From the sequence record OQ703618.1: DNA of 64,000 nt. One strand, written 5' to 3'. The notes beneath the pieces were generated by a model, which saw only the letters and a list, made by a program, of their open reading frames with translations, searched no databases and was not told the DNA's origin. Position numbers and translations under genes: made by a program. Shown here one piece after another: positions 1,288 to 53,838 of this stretch; the stretch's first letter is position 1; every line of letters starts with the position of its first letter. Source of the DNA: Escherichia phage GADS24.

Positions 1288-3501
1288 TTATTTGGCCGCT
1301 TCCACGGCCTTCATGAATTTAACGATTTGAGCGACCTGTTCTTTAGAAAGAGTACCACGTCGTCCCATGTATTCTGACACAATATGATAATTGGTTTCAA
1401 ATTCAATAACCATTTTATCATCATTATCGTAAGCATTATCTTTAAGCTTATCGAAAATTTTAGCACACAGTTCTAACTTCCTGTTCAGGTCTCTGTTATT
1501 AGCACCTGCGAATCGATTCCATCCCCAACGATTATTTACTGTTGAAAGTTTTGCAAAATCTTTACTGATTTCTTTGTTCTTAGAGCTAAAATACTTACTA
1601 AGGAAGTTAAGCTCTTCATTACGAGTAATATGGTTTAGATAGGGCTGTGCTCTACGACTTGGTGATACATACTCATCATAATCTACTTTATCGATTAGCG
1701 TAATGTAGTCATTAATTGATTTTTCGAACAAGCATTCTACTTCACCAAGTTTACGAACTTTCTTAGCAATCTGTGGGCGGACCACAGTGAACTCTTTAAT
1801 ACCTGACAAATCGGCAATACGAGTCAAGAAACCAGAATCATAGTTCAACCAACCTTTATCTGCGTCAAGACATTCAGCATTAGAACGATTACGAACTATA
1901 GCATAACCTTGGATTTCATCAGCTTCACTCGCCGGAATAAAGAGATCTTCTGATACCCAAACATCGTTTTCGTTCTTAAAGAACCGATGAGCACTTGGGG
2001 ATTTAGGACGAGGCCCATTAGAACGAGTCTTGACTTCAATCCATGGCTTAACGATTTGTAAAAGCTCTGAAGTCTTGTACATGTTAATGTTGTCGCCATC
2101 AAAGATAACTTTAAGGCGTTCCAGAAGTTTCATTGCATCTTCGTCTGTAGGGTCAACGAATAGTACGCTTTTACCAAAACCGCGTGGAACTTTACCGGTT
2201 AATTTAACCTCGTCTTTAGACATTTCAATTGAATTAAGAGCTCGCATTAATGGAACACGTCCCTTAACGTCGTCAATAACAATTTCAACGTTTTTAATGT
2301 TAATGCCAATCAGACTGTTAATTGAAATAGTTGCAGATGAGCTACCACTTTCACGAATACGACGAAGACGAGGGTCTTCAATGATATCGTATACGACGCC
2401 GAGATTACACCATTCGGGTCCCATTTTAAAACGTTTGTACAACTCAGAATAAGTTAGTTGTTCTTTAGAATATTTCAGAGATTCAATATTAGTCCCAGCC
2501 TTTTCCATGTATTTGCGAGCGGTATAGCCAAGAGAATCAATTTCACGGAACACATGACGCGGGTATTTACAATCAATCCATTTCTTAGAATCTTCAGCGA
2601 ACAATTTAGCATCGATTTCTGCAACGCGTTTATGGATATTTGCTACTGTACGTTTATCAAATGACAATGCTTCACGAGACGGGGCTACATCTAGTTCACC
2701 CATAGGGAATTTAATATAAGCTGTAGTGCATCGCGTCATCATCCATGTTTGTTCTTTAATAACACTTCCGATTGGATACACAATACCACCATAAACAGCC
2801 ATGATATTACCACGTTCACCCCATGGAGCTTCCTTGGCCAAATATACATCATCAAATTCAGGAAAGTATTTGATATCTTTAACACCACGAACTTCTGCAA
2901 TATCACCTAGAGGACGCATAACATAAGCAATTTCGGATGCGAACTTTTCAAAATCTTCTGGGTTAACAGGCACAACTACTTCAACGCCAGTCCGGTCATC
3001 AGGTCCCATCTTATCTACGAAGGTTGGCTTAATTTGTGGACCACTGTCATCTTGGTAGATTACGTAACCACGAACTTCACCATTGTGATAAGACGTAAGG
3101 TTAAACGTATCGGTATATGCTAGTGGAGCTTTAGAGCCGAGTCCGAATCCACCAATGAAATCGTTACTCGATGTTTTAGTTGAAGCAAAATATGAGTTAT
3201 AGATTCCTGGCTCTTCGTCATTACCTCGAATGGTGAAATCACTCATACCAGGACCAAAGTCTCTAACTACAAAACGTGGGTCTAAACGACCTGGAGCCTG
3301 AACAATAAACTTATCAGTGCAACCATTAAGAATTTGTCCATCGATACAGTTTGTGATTAATTCACGTACACAAGCCAATTCTTTGTTTGTATAAAGGTCA
3401 TTAGACAAAATCTTATAAACTTTGCTATTGCCTTGAATAGTAAATGCTGTGCTCTTACCGCCTGAGCCAATAATCGTTTCTTTAGCCGTTTCAATAATCA
3501 T
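1288..3501 (-). CDS. rIIA: rIIA protein (GHKL ATPase-like)
   Basis: 737 aa; T4 rIIA-like sequence and size; upstream of rIIB. Confidence 0.9.
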   Translation of the reverse strand: MIIETAKETIIGSGGKSTAFTIQGNSKVYKILSNDLYTNKELACVRELITNCIDGQILNGCTDKFIVQAPGRLDPRFVVRDFGPGMSDFTIRGNDEEPGIYNSYFASTKTSSNDFIGGFGLGSKAPLAYTDTFNLTSYHNGEVRGYVIYQDDSGPQIKPTFVDKMGPDDRTGVEVVVPVNPEDFEKFASEIAYVMRPLGDIAEVRGVKDIKYFPEFDDVYLAKEAPWGERGNIMAVYGGIVYPIGSVIKEQTWMMTRCTTAYIKFPMGELDVAPSREALSFDKRTVANIHKRVAEIDAKLFAEDSKKWIDCKYPRHVFREIDSLGYTARKYMEKAGTNIESLKYSKEQLTYSELYKRFKMGPEWCNLGVVYDIIEDPRLRRIRESGSSSATISINSLIGINIKNVEIVIDDVKGRVPLMRALNSIEMSKDEVKLTGKVPRGFGKSVLFVDPTDEDAMKLLERLKVIFDGDNINMYKTSELLQIVKPWIEVKTRSNGPRPKSPSAHRFFKNENDVWVSEDLFIPASEADEIQGYAIVRNRSNAECLDADKGWLNYDSGFLTRIADLSGIKEFTVVRPQIAKKVRKLGEVECLFEKSINDYITLIDKVDYDEYVSPSRRAQPYLNHITRNEELNFLSKYFSSKNKEISKDFAKLSTVNNRWGWNRFAGANNRDLNRKLELCAKIFDKLKDNAYDNDDKMVIEFETNYHIVSEYMGRRGTLSKEQVAQIVKFMKAVEAAK

Positions 3502-3513
3502 ATTTTTCTCTCA

Positions 3514-3714
3514 TCACAAGTTACGTTTAAAAATTTCTGCTACTTCAAGAAGTTCTTCTTTAGTAGCTGTATCGGTTTGTATTTTATATCGAATTTCTTT
3601 AAAGCGTTCTTTAAAGGACTCTGCTGACTCGATATCAAAAAATCTTTGGATAAGCCGGAATTCCCGGAGCACCGCTTTATCAAAAAGGTCCAAGTCCACG
3701 TTATATGTTCTCAT
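3514..3714 (-). CDS. small hypothetical protein (rIIA.1 position)
   Basis: 66-aa ORF immediately upstream of rIIA, synteny with T4 rIIA.1. Confidence 0.45.
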   Translation of the reverse strand: MRTYNVDLDLFDKAVLREFRLIQRFFDIESAESFKERFKEIRYKIQTDTATKEELLEVAEIFKRNL

Positions 3715-3740
3715 AATATTCTCTTCAGTAGATTCCTAGG

Positions 3741-3789
3741 GCACTATTATTAAAGACCATATAATCTATCATCTTATGTGTAATAGTGC
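3741..3789 (-). other. inverted repeat (9-bp arms gcactatta/taatagtgc) enclosing conserved GATGATAGA motif
   Basis: Seen in sequence between glycosyltransferase stop and rIIA.1 start. Confidence 0.5.
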
Positions 3790-7442: not shown

Positions 7443-7853
7443 TTATTCCTTAAAATGTGCTTTCAACATTTGATACAAAGACCATGCCTGGTCGGTATTT
7501 TCGATAGTAATCGTCATCACCGGAAATTCAGACAATTCGTCAAGTTCACCAGAATCTTGCTCTTCAGACGCTTGATACGGATTTCCAACTTCGTCAAAGA
7601 ACTCTGCTTCATTCGTAGAGAGCCAGATAAAGTTTTCATCAAGGATATCACCACCTGTTGCGTATCCAACCGCACCAGTAGATGTTAAAATTTTAGTAGG
7701 ACGTCCGAGATGGTCAACATCTAAAATTTTAAAAGGTTCCATGCCAAGACGTCGTGCATAAATCCCATTATCAGTGTGGTCTTTAATAAACTCTTCTTGG
7801 GCCCGTTTATCTATAAATTGGTACCATGAGTTAACGCGGAATTTATTAGCCAT
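7443..7853 (-). CDS. hypothetical protein
   Basis: ORF; start taken at MANKF ATG overlapping upstream stop (TAATG). Confidence 0.45.
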
Positions 7854-8080
7854 TAGTAAGTTTCCTTCCAATAAGTTGTACCATTTTCAGTGATTTCACG
7901 GAAGATGCCATAGATAGGCATTTCGTCACCGAGTTTTTCGTAAACGTAAACCACTTCGGTGTAGCATAAAAATTCAGTCCAGCTTTTTTGTACAACAACT
8001 AAATCAGGATTAAACAGAACATCTTCAAACTCATTGATGTTTGAATCAGTAGTTACGTTTTTAATGATTTGACGTTTCAT
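7853..8080 (-). CDS. hypothetical protein
   Basis: ORF; start at MKRQII downstream of early promoter cassette. Confidence 0.4.
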
Positions 8081-8108
8081 AATATTCTCCTCTTGTTTTG
8101 ATAGGTCT

Positions 8109-8137
8109 ATAGTATCATAGACCATAGTTGTTGTACA
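8109..8137 (-). promoter_or_regulatory. T4-type early promoter (-35 TGTACA, 17-bp spacer, -10 TACTAT) with small inverted repeat around -10
   Basis: Minus-strand hexamers with 17-bp spacing, followed by conserved AGACCTATCAA. Confidence 0.55.
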
Positions 8138-8662
8138 TCATTTTAGCAAAATAAAATCAACTTGTTCTGCCAATGAACGTCTGAACATTAATTGACAACT
8201 TCCGAGGATGAAATCAGGTGCTTCATAGACCGCGATGTAGTATCCTTTAGCTTTCAAGAGTTCAACATCCACCTGGTCATCAAACCATGCATAAACCGCG
8301 TCAACACTTTCAAATCCAAAATAGAACCCTTGAGCCCAATCTTCGCTCAATTCAAATGCGTGATCAATTCTATAGTATCTTAAGATATTTTGTTCAAGGA
8401 GTTTGTCTTCATTTACTGTAGGACGATTAGGGACATTATAGTTGTCGCCGTGATGGTAGAAGTTACCTGAGAGTATTCCATGCTTATCAAGGAACTCCCA
8501 TGTTTCTTCAGAGTTGTCGGTGCCCGACCAACCGTATGGCGAGCGAGGTTCTTTATTCCAAGAGGTTTCCCAAATTCTGACGGCTTTACCGTCTTCGATA
8601 GCAATTCCAGGTAATGATTCACGTTGAGTACAAAAACTACGTTCTACGCGGTAAACTAACAT
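8138..8662 (-). CDS. hypothetical protein
   Basis: 174-aa ORF with SD, own early promoter. Confidence 0.5.
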   Translation of the reverse strand: MLVYRVERSFCTQRESLPGIAIEDGKAVRIWETSWNKEPRSPYGWSGTDNSEETWEFLDKHGILSGNFYHHGDNYNVPNRPTVNEDKLLEQNILRYYRIDHAFELSEDWAQGFYFGFESVDAVYAWFDDQVDVELLKAKGYYIAVYEAPDFILGSCQLMFRRSLAEQVDFILLK

Positions 8663-8688
8663 ATTATTCTCCTCTGGTTGATATGGTT

Positions 8689-8717
8689 ATAATATCAAAA
8701 CCAGAGGAGAAGTAAAC
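8689..8717 (-). promoter_or_regulatory. T4-type early promoter (-35 GTTTAC, -10 TATTAT) flanked by inverted repeat pairing with SD
   Basis: Hexamers 17 bp apart; arms cctctggtt/aaccagagg. Confidence 0.55.
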
Positions 8718-8721
8718 AACT

Positions 8722-9141
8722 TTATGCAAAAGCAGCTGGGCTATATTTTTTAATTTGGAATTCAGGAACTACCATGAACTGTCCAGCGAAAACGATGTTA
8801 TAAAGCTTGACACCATCTTCTACCCAACGGTCGCTAATAAATCCAGCGATTTGCTTAGTTTTCCACGGCGTTCCATCAGTTGCCGCAGCAATAGTGAATT
8901 CATGGTCTTTTTCAACAGAAACTGATCTGCATAGTCCCCATTTGAACGCTTTTTCTTCTGGTTCAATGAATTGGCTTTTAACGTAGCCAATATTACCATT
9001 AGCATCACGAACTTTAACTTGGTTACGGCCAAAAACCGGATCACTCACAGAAAGAACTTCAACCAACTTCCCGGCAACTTTAGAGCGAGAAGCAACAGAT
9101 ACATATACGTAATCACCTGTAGAGAGATTTACAATATTCAT
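8722..9141 (-). CDS. hypothetical protein, tandem paralog family member A
   Basis: 139 aa; shares SRSKxAGxLVEV and GFISDxWVEDGxKLYNIVF blocks with next ORF. Confidence 0.55.
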   Translation of the reverse strand: MNIVNLSTGDYVYVSVASRSKVAGKLVEVLSVSDPVFGRNQVKVRDANGNIGYVKSQFIEPEEKAFKWGLCRSVSVEKDHEFTIAAATDGTPWKTKQIAGFISDRWVEDGVKLYNIVFAGQFMVVPEFQIKKYSPAAFA

Positions 9142-9150
9142 AATAATTCC

Positions 9151-9648
9151 TTAAGCTTTACGAGGAGACACATAGCGAGTGATTTCAGATTCTTTAACAA
9201 CTCGGAAGTCACCTAAGAATACGATATTGTATAACTTTTCACCATCTTCAACCCATTGGTCACTAATGAAGCCACACATAATATCAGTTTTGCTTGGATA
9301 TCCGTATTCGTCGATGTAATCAAATTCTTTATCGGTTATAAATTCAACGCCTTTGCAAAGGGCCCATTTAAACTGTGTAGTAGGCTCAACGATATCGTTT
9401 GAAGCAAAGTGTGCAGGTGCAACTTCTTCGCTTGAAGCAAATTGGACTCGTATATGTTTTTCCAGGAATTTAGGACTTACGTAAGCATACTGGGCATCTT
9501 GTCCGCCAAAACTAGGAATGATTCGAACTTTAACTTCTTTAATACGTCCCATGCCATTTGTGCGAAGTCCGACAACTTCAACCAGACGACCTGCGGCTTT
9601 AGACCGGGATGCAGTTGATACACGTTTAATTTCACCAATAGTAATCAT
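9151..9648 (-). CDS. hypothetical protein, tandem paralog family member B
   Basis: Start taken at MITIGEIK with SD; ORF-track 5' extension overlaps promoter. Confidence 0.55.
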   Translation of the reverse strand: MITIGEIKRVSTASRSKAAGRLVEVVGLRTNGMGRIKEVKVRIIPSFGGQDAQYAYVSPKFLEKHIRVQFASSEEVAPAHFASNDIVEPTTQFKWALCKGVEFITDKEFDYIDEYGYPSKTDIMCGFISDQWVEDGEKLYNIVFLGDFRVVKESEITRYVSPRKA

Positions 9649-9678
9649 ATTTTTTCTCTCTTTGTTTAAGTTGAATTC

Positions 9679-9707
9679 ATTATACTCCATCCATCCTTGG
9701 ATGTACA
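9679..9707 (-). promoter_or_regulatory. T4-type early promoter (-35 TGTACA, -10 TATAAT)
   Basis: Hexamers 17 bp apart; part of repeated ~40-bp cassette. Confidence 0.55.
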
Positions 9708-9710
9708 ACA

Positions 9711-10205
9711 TTAATTTAGAATATTAACTACTGCACTACGTGGAACCACACTAAAGTCACCGGCATGAACAACGTTCAGAAGTTCAACCCCATCTTCAAT
9801 CCACTGGTCAGTTACCCAGCCACTTACCGGTCCAGCGAATGGTCGACGAATTGAAACTGCTTTACACAACAAGTCTGTAGGCTCAATAGGCTTAATCAGA
9901 GTACCGTACATACAAGCGATATCCATATCAAAGTGGAGACCATCTTTAACAGGTGCTTCTTCAATCAACAGTTCAAAGTCAGTGCTTGGAATGGCGGTAG
10001 TAGAAATTGTACCGTGTGAATTTTTAATTTCTAAGAATAACCAAGGGCCTTCAGCTTGTTTGATGAAGTTAACAATAGTGAAACTATTACCTTGAGTGGC
10101 ACCTAAAATTTCACAAAACTTTTCATAAGCTCGCACTGAAGCACCGTACCAGTTGATTTGTTTTTCGTCTTTCAGGATGTAAGTAGCCGTAGTATTGATA
10201 TTCAT
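9711..10205 (-). CDS. hypothetical protein, tandem paralog family member C
   Basis: 164 aa; C-terminal WVTDQWIEDGVELLNVV block related to members A and B. Confidence 0.55.
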   Translation of the reverse strand: MNINTTATYILKDEKQINWYGASVRAYEKFCEILGATQGNSFTIVNFIKQAEGPWLFLEIKNSHGTISTTAIPSTDFELLIEEAPVKDGLHFDMDIACMYGTLIKPIEPTDLLCKAVSIRRPFAGPVSGWVTDQWIEDGVELLNVVHAGDFSVVPRSAVVNILN

Positions 10206-10220
10206 AATGTTTTTCCTGTT

Positions 10221-10270
10221 TGGTTAAGATAGAAAGATTATACTCCAACCATCCTTGGTTGTAAACTGAT
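10221..10270 (-). repeat. ~50-bp early-promoter cassette copy (near-identical to 51801..51853)
   Basis: agatagaaagattatactccaacc[a/g]tccttggttgtaaactgattt seen at both sites. Confidence 0.7.
10237..10266 (-). promoter_or_regulatory. T4-type early promoter (-35 GTTTACA, -10 TATAAT)
   Basis: Hexamers with 17/18-bp spacer inside repeat cassette. Confidence 0.55.
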
Positions 10271-10271
10271 T

Positions 10272-10949
10272 TTATCGCTGTTTTACACTTAACGGGTCAG
10301 GATTCTCAGGGACATCTTCAAGGCCAAGCGCATAACGCTGAGCATATTTTAACATCAAAATATCTTTAGCACAATCATGAATACTATCATGGGCAACGAA
10401 TCCTTTTAGCGTACCCATCGGTAATGGACACATACTTAATCCTCGTGTCAACGAGTAAGCTTCGATTGCCGTACGAATATCGCGTTGAGCCCAGAATTTA
10501 ACCGGTTCTAATTTATCGGTATCAATCTCTGGTTCAAGAACACCTTCATCACGATAGAGGTCACGAATCAAATCGACCAATATCGGGAAGTCAAAGCTCA
10601 TACCACGGCACCACATCTGTGATTTCCATTGGTCAACTTTATTAGCTCGGCAATAATCTAAAAAGATTTTAATGCCTTCAAGCGTAGTGACATCGTCTTC
10701 AGACGGAGCTAGGTTTTTACGTGCTTCTGCTGATTGTTCTTTCCACCATTTCATAGTGGATTTAGCGAAAACTCGCTTCCCTTTCTGAGAAGCTAAATTA
10801 AATTTAATTCGCTTACCTCGTTGAACAAGTTCTTCAAATGATTCAACAACTTCAGGGTCGGAATTATATGCAATAACCGCAAGGTCAATAACAGCCGCTT
10901 TTGATGTATTGCCGAATGTTTCAAAATCTATAATAACATCAGTGCTCAT
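10272..10949 (-). CDS. dexA: exonuclease A (DEDD 3'-5' exonuclease)
   Basis: 225 aa; DFETFG motif and overall similarity to T4 DexA. Confidence 0.8.
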   Translation of the reverse strand: MSTDVIIDFETFGNTSKAAVIDLAVIAYNSDPEVVESFEELVQRGKRIKFNLASQKGKRVFAKSTMKWWKEQSAEARKNLAPSEDDVTTLEGIKIFLDYCRANKVDQWKSQMWCRGMSFDFPILVDLIRDLYRDEGVLEPEIDTDKLEPVKFWAQRDIRTAIEAYSLTRGLSMCPLPMGTLKGFVAHDSIHDCAKDILMLKYAQRYALGLEDVPENPDPLSVKQR

Positions 10950-50838: not shown

Positions 50839-51789
50839 TTATAAAACCTCAATGGCATTTCGTAAACCGTCCGCTTTCGCATTCAGAGCTTTTAACGATT
50901 TAGTTTGTTCTGCAATCTGGGCTTCGACTTCTTTCAGACGAGATTTGAGGTATTCGCGTTCTTCTCTTAAATTATCAACTTTTTCTGCTTTAGGTTCTTT
51001 AATAGACTTAGGTTTATACGTATTAGGGTTCTTCAGCTTAATTTGAATACGAGAACTGAATAACATTGAACCGTTATCTTCGGTTTCGCTGAACATTTCA
51101 ACAACATCCATAGTCTGTAGTATCATACGAAGTTTATAAGACAATGAACGAACGGTTTTGTTATGCTTATTAATTTCTTCAGCTTTCATGGTACCGAGAT
51201 TACGTGAGTAGTAATAAGGAACCTGGATATCAATTGATAATGATGCGTTACCATTACCGGTTGGTTTGAATACTGCAGTAACCCAATCTTTAACATGAAC
51301 TTTATTTGTACGACCATCACCGCCCGTGAATAATTTACGAGAATGTTTAAAAAGCATATTCACTTGGTTATTGAATTCACAAGCAAATTTATCAGCAAAT
51401 TTAGTTTCAGGAATGGTAGATAACCAATCAGCCAAATGAGTCTTTTTAACATCATTAACAATAGTGAATTCAACCAAATCAGTTTTAGATGTCACAGATT
51501 TAATAAAGCTTGGCTTCATAAAGTTTTTAATGTTATCACGAGCCACAGTAGAAGATAATAAACGAGAACGTTTGAACCATTGAAGCAGTGTCCCTAATGA
51601 ATGAGAATACGCATTCTGAGTATCTTTACAGATATGATTTTCTTGACCTGTGTATGTACCAAAATCTCGAAGAATACCACTTACTACATCTCGGTGTGGA
51701 ACATCAAATCCTAATGAACCGGAAGCACGTTGGGCATGAACGTTAGCGATAAGACCTGCAAAATAATCAATGTAATGTGAACGTGTCAT
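50839..51789 (-). CDS. hypothetical protein with C-terminal coiled coil
   Basis: 316 aa, own early promoter. Confidence 0.5.
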   Translation of the reverse strand: MTRSHYIDYFAGLIANVHAQRASGSLGFDVPHRDVVSGILRDFGTYTGQENHICKDTQNAYSHSLGTLLQWFKRSRLLSSTVARDNIKNFMKPSFIKSVTSKTDLVEFTIVNDVKKTHLADWLSTIPETKFADKFACEFNNQVNMLFKHSRKLFTGGDGRTNKVHVKDWVTAVFKPTGNGNASLSIDIQVPYYYSRNLGTMKAEEINKHNKTVRSLSYKLRMILQTMDVVEMFSETEDNGSMLFSSRIQIKLKNPNTYKPKSIKEPKAEKVDNLREEREYLKSRLKEVEAQIAEQTKSLKALNAKADGLRNAIEVL

Positions 51790-51800
51790 AATATTTTCCT

Positions 51801-51853
51801 CTCGTTAAGATAGAAAGATTATACTCCAACCGTCCTTGGTTGTAAACTGATTT
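51801..51853 (-). repeat. ~50-bp early-promoter cassette copy (near-identical to 10221..10270)
   Basis: Direct nucleotide comparison of both copies. Confidence 0.7.
51818..51847 (-). promoter_or_regulatory. T4-type early promoter (-35 TTTACA, -10 TATAAT)
   Basis: Hexamers 17 bp apart. Confidence 0.55.
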
Positions 51854-52787
51854 ATGGTTTTAATGCATTCATTGCGTTAAAAAGTTTAGAGTACTGCAAC
51901 TGGAGCTTGGTAACTACTTGTTGAGCATCACGAAGCTTAGCTTGTGCTTTATCAAGTTCAACAGACAGTTGGTCCATAGTGCCCTTGATTTGATTATAAT
52001 AGTAATCTTCGGCAGGAAGAAGACCATTAGATATTTCCAGTTTAGTCGACGGTGAAGTGTATATAGATGGAGCAGTAGAATATGCACCTAGAACTTCAGC
52101 ATTGCCAATTGGGGTTGCAGTAATTGACGCTTCGAACGTCGCATTTTCCTTTTTAAGATTTTGATAGTATTCAGAGTCTTTGTGCCACCATGGCGCAGGA
52201 ACCTTTTTACCAATAGATACACGAGCCTGGATAGCGATATGGCCCTTATTCTTGATAGGGTTGATAATATTAAGCTCGCGAGAATAAATTGCTTTAATCT
52301 GGTGGATATTATCACCTAACACTTCCAACGCTTGGTGGAATACACGAGCAACGTTATCATTCTTAGGTTTATACGTAAGAGTGAATTCGTTCTCACTGAT
52401 AACCATAATTTCCAACTTATCGTAAGTATATTTCAAATGTTTCATGTTAATTGCTTGAGGACGAATACGAGAAGCAATGGCCATCAGATTGTTAAGGTTA
52501 TTCCGGAACTGCTTAGCGAAATATTGTCCTTCACCACCAATACAAAAATTACGAAGTTTCTGTTTAGCTAATAAACGGCTGAACTCACCATTTTTAATGA
52601 ACTCTTTAACGGGTGTGTTAGTAACGCATTCAAATTGAGTAAACTTACGAGAAGTAATCCCATAATATGAACAGACTTCCTCAATCTCTTCAGGAGTCTT
52701 TACAGGCATACGGATAGGATTAGGTCCTGGAGTATATGCGTTCGAGGTAAATTCTTTGATAAGTTCTCTACGTGTAATAAAAGCCAT
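51852..52787 (-). CDS. hypothetical protein with C-terminal coiled coil
   Basis: 311 aa. Confidence 0.5.
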   Translation of the reverse strand: MAFITRRELIKEFTSNAYTPGPNPIRMPVKTPEEIEEVCSYYGITSRKFTQFECVTNTPVKEFIKNGEFSRLLAKQKLRNFCIGGEGQYFAKQFRNNLNNLMAIASRIRPQAINMKHLKYTYDKLEIMVISENEFTLTYKPKNDNVARVFHQALEVLGDNIHQIKAIYSRELNIINPIKNKGHIAIQARVSIGKKVPAPWWHKDSEYYQNLKKENATFEASITATPIGNAEVLGAYSTAPSIYTSPSTKLEISNGLLPAEDYYYNQIKGTMDQLSVELDKAQAKLRDAQQVVTKLQLQYSKLFNAMNALKP

Positions 52788-52813
52788 TTTATATTCCTCG
52801 TGTTGAAAAATTT

Positions 52814-52842
52814 ATTATACTCCAACCGTCCTTGGTTGTACA
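52814..52842 (-). promoter_or_regulatory. T4-type early promoter (-35 TGTACA, -10 TATAAT), cassette variant
   Basis: Hexamers 17 bp apart; shares tatactccaaccgtccttggttgta with other copies. Confidence 0.55.
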
Positions 52843-53838
52843 TCATTCCTTAAGAAGTTTTACTACTTGAATAAGATTAGCTCGTTCTGTTTTATTTTTA
52901 CCGTTTAAGCCTGCTAATCGTGAGATTTCATCGTCAGTCTGTTGAATAGTTACATTAAGTTCGTTAATCAAAGCTTCAAAGTATTTGATTTGCTCAGCAT
53001 GTTTTGATTCAAATTTCTGAACCGGAATAACGTCTTGGTTCAGTTCATCAATAAGGTCTTTAAGAGCATCTTCTTGGTTGATATCATATTCAACTTCTTT
53101 TATTTCTTCAACGAGCTCGTCTTTATATCTAACGTCTTTTAGTCCTGGAGCTGGTCCTGAAATCTCTTCTTTAAGAGTACAAACATATACATTACGGTAT
53201 CTAATGCCGTCTCGCTTGATATCAACTTCGTCAATAAATCCACAATGTTTAAGTCCAGAGCCGATTATGTCAAAATATCCTTGACGTTGTCCTTCAAACG
53301 TTACACGAACTACTAAGACAGTTTTGCCACCAACCTTTTGAAGCTCACATTTATAAAAGTCTGTTGAACCTGAATAACGCGGATGAGTTTTAAAGTTCAT
53401 CTGACGATCTAGGCCCATTTGTAAGCGTGCTGATACGGCCATAAAACGTGTTTGGTTCTCGTTAAGATGAGCAACAATCCGTTTCAAAGGCATTTTACCC
53501 TGTTCACGACCGAACAAATCAGTACGTCCTAGATTACGCAGAATGTTGTTAGAGTTAATCATCGACAGAACGTTAAGTTTATTCAGCGCGCTGAAGATTC
53601 CATCGGCCATTGATTTTCCGTAACCTTTACACGCTTTAATAAGCGCTCGCGGGAGATTAGTATAGATTTCAGACGGCATATGAAAATCAAATTTACTAGT
53701 CAGTAATTGATGAACTTGGATAGCAATTTGCTCATAATTAAGTGCTCTGCGATCGTTATGGTCTTTAAACCACACTTTAATCTGTGAAGCACATAAACCG
53801 TTAATTTCATGTTTTACCGCATCAGATGTAATGCTCAT
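52843..53838 (-). CDS. hypothetical protein with C-terminal coiled coil
   Basis: 331 aa. Confidence 0.5.
   Translation of the reverse strand: MSITSDAVKHEINGLCASQIKVWFKDHNDRRALNYEQIAIQVHQLLTSKFDFHMPSEIYTNLPRALIKACKGYGKSMADGIFSALNKLNVLSMINSNNILRNLGRTDLFGREQGKMPLKRIVAHLNENQTRFMAVSARLQMGLDRQMNFKTHPRYSGSTDFYKCELQKVGGKTVLVVRVTFEGQRQGYFDIIGSGLKHCGFIDEVDIKRDGIRYRNVYVCTLKEEISGPAPGLKDVRYKDELVEEIKEVEYDINQEDALKDLIDELNQDVIPVQKFESKHAEQIKYFEALINELNVTIQQTDDEISRLAGLNGKNKTERANLIQVVKLLKE

Follow-up and report, generated by a model that had tools for sequence, protein, structure and literature searches.

The three adjacent open reading frames at positions 8722-10205 of the window (the whole 64,000-nucleotide stretch of phage DNA analyzed here) are best explained as the motB.1, motB and motB-like early gene cluster of a Mosigvirus phage, presumably with a MotB-like function, a reading to which we assign a probability of about 85%. 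On this reading, the first and second frames (ORF1 and ORF2) would be two old MotB paralogs, each with a basic KOW/SH3-like barrel at the N-terminus that a flexible linker joins to a C-terminal domain in the form of a small beta-barrel, and the third (ORF3) would be MotB.1, with the same C-terminal domain placed behind a different N-terminal domain (reported to be LSm-like for T4 MotB.1). The cluster is already known and described for the RB69-like lineage: Patterson-West et al. 2021 (PMC7827196) aligned 102 phage homologs, described MotB proper as a KOW-like N-terminal domain plus a C-terminal domain, recognized MotB.1-like categories that carry the same C-terminal domain behind other N-terminal domains (four N-terminal categories), proposed that one of the two genes, motB or motB.1, is a duplicate of the other, and listed two motB copies, one motB.1 and a 29-aa peptide for RB69. 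Because both the shared domain and the RB69 layout had been published, the cluster is a rediscovery, a gene family correctly spotted by the original prediction and of modest use for work on T4 early genes.

Judged from its sequence, the phage is a Mosigvirus (an RB69-like, T4-type coliphage of the Tevenvirinae); the region was matched best by phage JN02 (98.8% identity), and many Mosigvirus genomes are 95-99% identical to it. All three predicted frames were present on the minus strand, in the following gene context:

10272-10949, minus strand: dexA (exonuclease A), the upstream neighbor, annotated as exonuclease or dexA in matching records
9711-10205, minus strand: ORF3, 164 aa, MotB.1 ortholog
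9151-9648, minus strand: ORF2, 165 aa, MotB ortholog
8722-9141, minus strand: ORF1, 139 aa, a second, shorter MotB paralog
8138-8662, minus strand: motB.2, the downstream neighbor, 174 aa, MotB.2 ortholog, annotated motB.2 in RB69
7853-8125: cef (PF24050, E 6e-33)

With dexA next door, the locus is anchored to the T4 dexA-cef interval, and the three ORFs thus sit where the MotB family is located in Tevenvirinae genomes, flanked further out by dda upstream (with dexA) and by a goF-like gene downstream (with cef). The order dexA, motB.1, motB, motB-like, motB.2, cef is the same in the window, RB69, HX01 and moskry, whereas T4 has the order dexA, motB.2, motB.1, motB, cef, with a single motB. The placement of motB.2 varies by lineage: T4 has it beside dexA, upstream of motB.1 (3162-3662), and in the window, RB69 and HX01 it follows the MotB copies and adjoins cef. 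The product of 8138-8662 matches T4 MotB.2 (34% identity, E 5e-13); we considered this protein as a fourth paralog and rejected it, since despite its name it matches neither the three ORFs nor PF17613.

Pairwise BLASTP alignments (E-values for a nominal database size of 1e6 residues) and the Pfam profile PF17613 (motB, modifier of transcription; gathering score 25 bits) both bore out the prediction that these are tandem paralogs sharing a C-terminal domain, with similarity far beyond chance (E 1e-6 to 1e-25). ORF1 and ORF2 are related over their whole length (40% identity, 159 columns, E 5.6e-25), and ORF3 aligned to ORF1 (E 3e-7) and to ORF2 (E 1.7e-6) over about 55 C-terminal residues; all three proteins scored above the Pfam gathering score. 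Common to the three is a C-terminal domain of about 60-70 residues, which was located as follows:

9714-9887, minus strand: shared C-terminal domain in ORF3 (residues about 107-164; from alignments and the Pfam match)
9154-9375, minus strand: shared C-terminal domain in ORF2 (residues about 92-165; from alignments and AF2 strands)
8725-8943, minus strand: shared C-terminal domain in ORF1 (residues about 67-139; from alignments and the best Pfam stretch)

Three sequence blocks had been thought to run through all three proteins. One of them, W.xDxW.EDG..L.N.V, does so; the other two, SRSK(A/V)AG(K/R)LVEV and FKW(G/A)LC, are confined to ORF1 and ORF2, since ORF3 shares C-terminal residues only, and the block GW/F..D.W.EDG..L.N.V..G.F.VV is all that it has in common with the other two. 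The divergent middle regions noted at the same time correspond, between ORF1 and ORF2, to a disordered inter-domain linker of variable length; in ORF3 it is the N-terminal domain that is unrelated. The full MotB architecture, a KOW-like N-terminal domain (bearing the SRSKAAGKLVEV motif) followed by the C-terminal domain, was found in ORF1 and ORF2 and is lacking from ORF3, where the N-terminal domain is of the MotB.1 type.

ORF2 is the closer of the two MotB copies to the T4 protein, with 46% identity to T4 MotB over 161 columns (E 1e-38, BLASTP) and a full-length match to PF17613 (129.3 bits); it also falls within phrog_1671 ("MotB-like transcriptional regulator", E 1e-63), and the RB69 gene in its position is annotated motB. 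Its layout comprises a basic KOW/SH3-like N-terminal domain, a linker (residues 66-90) and the C-terminal domain (residues about 92-165). Structurally, the AF2 model built with the family alignment (mean pLDDT 78.8) contains two confident beta-rich domains, with strands E100-160 at a pLDDT of 87-95, and between them a linker modeled as disordered (pLDDT < 50 for residues 66-90), the length of which varies among orthologs of 151 to 175 aa. The ORF2 reading frame is open upstream to an ATG at 9711, but 9648 is preferable as the start codon: this methionine is where the Pfam motB profile and T4 MotB begin, and the stretch separating the two ATGs contains a promoter-like site (9707-9679). In HX01 (NC_018855), a RefSeq 22-aa CDS named 'modifier of transcription' (3713-3781) is equivalent to this upstream in-frame motB extension (window 9649-9711); it overlaps the promoter-like site and is thus probably an annotation artefact.

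ORF1, which is 37% identical to T4 MotB (BLASTP), scored 75.9 bits against PF17613 (best stretch residues 65-139) and also belongs to phrog_1671 (E 6e-51), and Mosigvirus records give the name 'MotB-like protein' to near-identical proteins of 139 aa. It retains both MotB domains with almost no linker, so that it is 139 aa long as compared with the 162 aa of T4 MotB. Evolutionarily, ORF1 is an old and more divergent MotB paralog. T4 MotB resembles ORF2 and ORF1 in having the same two-domain layout, the same dexA-cef position and an early-promoter-like site upstream, as in the Mosigvirus cluster; it differs in that the Mosigvirus lineage keeps two MotB copies, and in that ORF2 has an acidic C-terminal domain and a whole-protein pI of 6.8, versus 9.2 for T4 MotB.

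ORF3, on the other hand, is a domain-swapped relative and not a full-length paralog of ORF1 and ORF2. Its alignment to T4 MotB.1 starts at residue 3 and runs across the N-terminal domain into the C-terminal one (38% identity, 134 columns, E 2.8e-24, BLASTP), its N-terminal domain is homologous to T4 MotB.1 residues 1-82, and it belongs to phrog_2333 (E 2e-81), with a secondary match to MotB; against PF17613 it scored 36.8 bits over residues 88-159, which cover the C-terminal half of the profile only. RB68 and T4-type homologs of ORF3 are named motB.1. Its AF2 model (family alignment, mean pLDDT 79.9) again shows two confident beta-rich domains and a disordered linker, giving a layout of MotB.1-type N-terminal domain (residues about 1-84), disordered linker (87-103) and intact MotB-type C-terminal domain. 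T4 MotB.1 corresponds to 'Category 2' of Patterson-West et al. 2021. For T4, Kim et al. 2025 (PMC12152347) assigned the N-terminal domain of MotB.1 to the LSm-like fold, a bent antiparallel sheet of five strands, with GoF and Frd.2 as relatives, and found burst size and latent period to be normal upon motB.1 deletion. ORF3 occupies the slot that matches T4 MotB.1, immediately upstream of motB, although T4 has motB.2 between dexA and motB.1, and it differs from the T4 protein in its intact 58-residue C-terminal domain and in about 22 extra linker residues (..HFDMDIACMYGTLIKPIE..).

Just before the C-terminal domain of ORF3, in a stretch predicted to be disordered, lies the conserved linker motif D.D(I/V)A.MYGTL(I/V)KP (residues about 91-106, positions 9888-9935). 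This motif recurs in the N-terminal region of a 180-aa class of proteins and internally in a 248-aa class, is also present in KOW-type proteins with a MotB.1-type C-terminal domain, and is absent from the 143-aa T4-type MotB.1. The C-terminal domain of ORF3 itself recurs, with 75-88% identity, behind at least four N-terminal arrangements (143, 145-149, 180 and 248 aa), and the MotB family is, on such alignments, modular. Metagenomic contigs of 1.1-3.8 kb contained three apparent chimeras that join an N-terminal domain of ORF2 or T4-type MotB to an ORF1-type C-terminal domain; this is the pattern expected from recombination between tandem paralogs, and assembly artefacts in short contigs would also be a possible source. 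A profile of the MotB alignment searched against all PDB sequences for a solved structure returned nothing meaningful (best match bL9, E 0.84).

Two reference records carry anomalies in motB.1. In the T4 record (NC_000866 / AF158101; about 2715-2915, minus strand, cf. window 9711-9800), an extra G makes motB.1 read ATTGGAAGATGG where relatives read ATTGAAGATGG. Owing to this 1-nt insertion, the MotB.1 of that record is 119 aa long and ends inside the C-terminal domain, and the next frame of the reference still encodes the conserved C-terminal tail EDGVELLNVVHAGEYSVVPRSAVVAILN. The insertion is absent from 13 other T4, T4T, RB55 and RB59 records, where the full 143-aa MotB.1 is encoded without a break (100% identity). 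The motB region of RB69 (RB69p013, p012, p011, p010 and p009) has the same gene order and sizes as the window, except in motB.1: the window has a single uninterrupted 164-aa ORF, and the RB69 record (NC_004928, 3866-4066, minus strand) has two single-base insertions, judged against the window and HX01, that split the gene into ORFs of 132 aa and 29 aa. The 29-aa RB69 peptide assigned to 'Category 3' by Patterson-West et al. 2021 is, on this comparison, the displaced C-terminus of MotB.1. Both the T4 and the RB69 insertions look like record errors or stock-specific changes. The 13.8-kDa monomer that Kim et al. 2025 (PMC12152347) reported for MotB.1 corresponds to the truncated, 119-aa form, which is probably a product of the single-base insertion in the record. 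The Mosigvirus copies supply an intact MotB.1 with its full MotB-type C-terminal domain, which is useful to those working on T4 early genes.

Functionally, T4 MotB is made early and in large amounts, is toxic to E. coli, binds DNA non-specifically (unmodified and glucosyl-hmC DNA alike), copurifies with H-NS and StpA only when DNA is present, overrides the H-NS footprint at proV, upregulates 75 host genes, roughly one third of them from the H-NS regulon, and increases burst size 2-fold (PMC6070864, PMC7827196); knockdown of T4 motB barely changed the phage transcriptome (PMC6070864). A host-interaction family, as had been proposed for the three ORFs, fits this published picture of nucleoid, H-NS, toxicity and burst size (PMC6070864, PMC7827196). 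By homology to T4 MotB, then, ORF2 and probably ORF1 would be expressed early and abundantly, would coat DNA without sequence preference, would change how H-NS and StpA are seated on the host nucleoid, and would relieve the repression of part of the H-NS regulon and increase burst size. The modest identity of ORF1 and ORF2 to T4 MotB (37-46%) counts against carrying the T4 function over to them. Homology, domain layout, synteny, purifying selection and promoter-like sites are what the analysis demonstrates; each biochemical activity, like the split of labor between the domains, is inferred.

As for how such a function might be divided between domains, charge and modularity are what we have drawn on. 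MotB-type N-terminal domains have a pI of 9.2-10.7 and the C-terminal domains a pI of 4.7-8.1, and ORF3 has a net charge of -8; this charge split, together with the modular recurrence of the C-terminal domain, favors the N-terminal domain as the non-specific DNA binder. We therefore propose, at slightly below even odds, that DNA is bound by the basic N-terminal domain and that the C-terminal domain, neutral to acidic, serves all three proteins as a module for interaction or assembly; a division of this kind, suggested by the charge distribution, is testable. Somewhat less likely, but a serious rival, is the proposal of the MotB authors that the C-terminal domain is itself DNA-binding as a cold-shock-like OB fold, in which case all three proteins would bind DNA and the N-terminal domains would add partners; the same authors regarded either domain as a possible DNA binder (PMC7827196). 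Returning to the assignment of DNA binding to the N-terminal domain, a more elaborate version, which we consider unlikely, would have the C-terminal domain serve for docking or co-assembly and not for DNA binding, bringing MotB, the second MotB and MotB.1 (and elsewhere the 180- and 248-aa forms) together in mixed nucleoid assemblies or on one host target, with the swapped N-terminal domains providing nucleic-acid or protein specificities and D.D(I/V)A.MYGTL(I/V)KP acting as a short binding motif.

Ecologically, MotB-like sequences were detected by tblastn in 769 phage records, nearly all of them from Escherichia, Shigella, Yersinia, Klebsiella and Salmonella phages. When 1.84 billion representative proteins were searched exhaustively with phmmer, only 17 clusters came up at E up to 0.001, and a structure search of viral models returned mostly proteins of T4-like enterobacterial phages; neither search indicated a family of known function outside the T4-like group, and we thus regard the MotB family as narrow and phage-specific. 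Within this group, dN/dS values of ORF1, ORF2 and ORF3 against HX01 and RB69 were 0.02-0.18, similar to those of motB.2 (0.05 and 0.16), with dexA somewhat lower (0.02 and about 0). These values argue that all three genes are maintained as functional genes under purifying selection, and no sign of diversifying or positive selection was seen at the depth of HX01 and RB69.

Such selection bears on the further suggestion in the original prediction, that the genes form an anti-defense or counter-immunity family diversifying rapidly in tandem, which we consider improbable. The T4-type genome can indeed dispense with the early region that holds these genes, their linkers vary in length, their N-terminal domains are swapped, apparent chimeras of an ORF2-type N-terminal and an ORF1-type C-terminal domain occur in metagenomic contigs, and the silencing of foreign DNA by H-NS can be viewed as a defense (PMC7827196). 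However, at 35-40% identity the paralogs are old, Mosigvirus genomes keep them in one fixed order, their dN/dS values are low as given above, and the literature searched held no published link to a dedicated defense system; nothing that we found pointed to an anti-defense role in the strict sense. What had been taken for tandem diversification is thus the known motB.1/motB/motB-like cluster, in the same order in RB69 and HX01 and under purifying selection, and a recent tandem amplification was likewise rejected on the grounds of the low identity between paralogs and the order conserved across Mosigvirus. That the shared blocks arose by chance, or that the ORFs are not genes at all, is already refuted by the BLASTP E-values (1e-6 to 1e-25), by Pfam scores that exceed the threshold, by the hundreds of homologs in which the sequences are conserved, and by purifying selection.

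Upstream of the genes, a consensus scan and a search for repeated elements identified the following:

10237-10265, minus strand: early-promoter-like site before ORF3 (TTTACA-17-TATAAT, 11/12 matches)
9679-9707, minus strand: early-promoter-like site before ORF2 (TGTACA-17-TATAAT, 10/12 matches)
9679-9700, 10237-10258, 51818-51839 and 52814-52835, minus strand: copies of a 22-nt cassette

The sites before ORF3 and ORF2, which are consensus matches only, are in keeping with the claim that two of the genes possess early promoters of their own, and the scan gave no promoter match for ORF1 itself. ORF1 starts 9 nt past the ORF2 stop, so the two are probably co-transcribed. Across the scan, 16 sigma-70/T4-early-like sites were found versus 11.9 expected in shuffles, which makes the consensus weak when taken alone. 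The ORF2 and ORF3 promoters also share a nearly identical spacer, CCAAGGATGG(A/T)TGGAG, and the 22-nt cassette CCAAGGA(T/C)GG(A/T)TGGAGTATAAT is present in four copies versus 0 expected. We considered this promoter likeness as the trace of a duplicated gene-plus-promoter unit and rejected it: the genes behind the cassettes at 51818 and 52814 belong to PHROG families other than those of the motB genes, which argues for a genome-wide class of early promoter.

The distant cassettes lie in a region (50839-53838, minus strand) of three consecutive ORFs of 316, 311 and 331 aa (phrog_1435, phrog_2351 and phrog_2257), of which the 316-aa and 311-aa ORFs are each preceded by a copy and have no BLASTP similarity to one another. 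The cassette before ORF3 and that before the gene at 50839-51789 are nearly identical over ~60 nt, through the 5' leader to the start codon, despite the two genes being unrelated. Very similar early-promoter cassettes that stand before genes and recur elsewhere in the genome are reminiscent of the PeSL cassettes of T4-type phages, in which an early promoter and a stable stem-loop are repeated in hyperplastic regions (Arbiol et al. 2010; Comeau et al. 2014). Compared with shuffles, however, the cassettes before ORF2 and ORF3 showed no gain in folding (z -1.0 and -0.2), so a stem-loop of the PeSL type is not seen there. A strong hairpin was seen only before motB.2, between this gene and ORF1 (8667-8711, minus strand; 18 base pairs, dG -23.9 kcal/mol, z -5.7). 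It encloses the -10 box of the promoter-like site of motB.2, and the motB.2 Shine-Dalgarno sequence (GAGGAG) falls within its 3' arm; on transcripts reading through from upstream, this hairpin could block access to the ribosome-binding site or serve as a signal for processing or termination.
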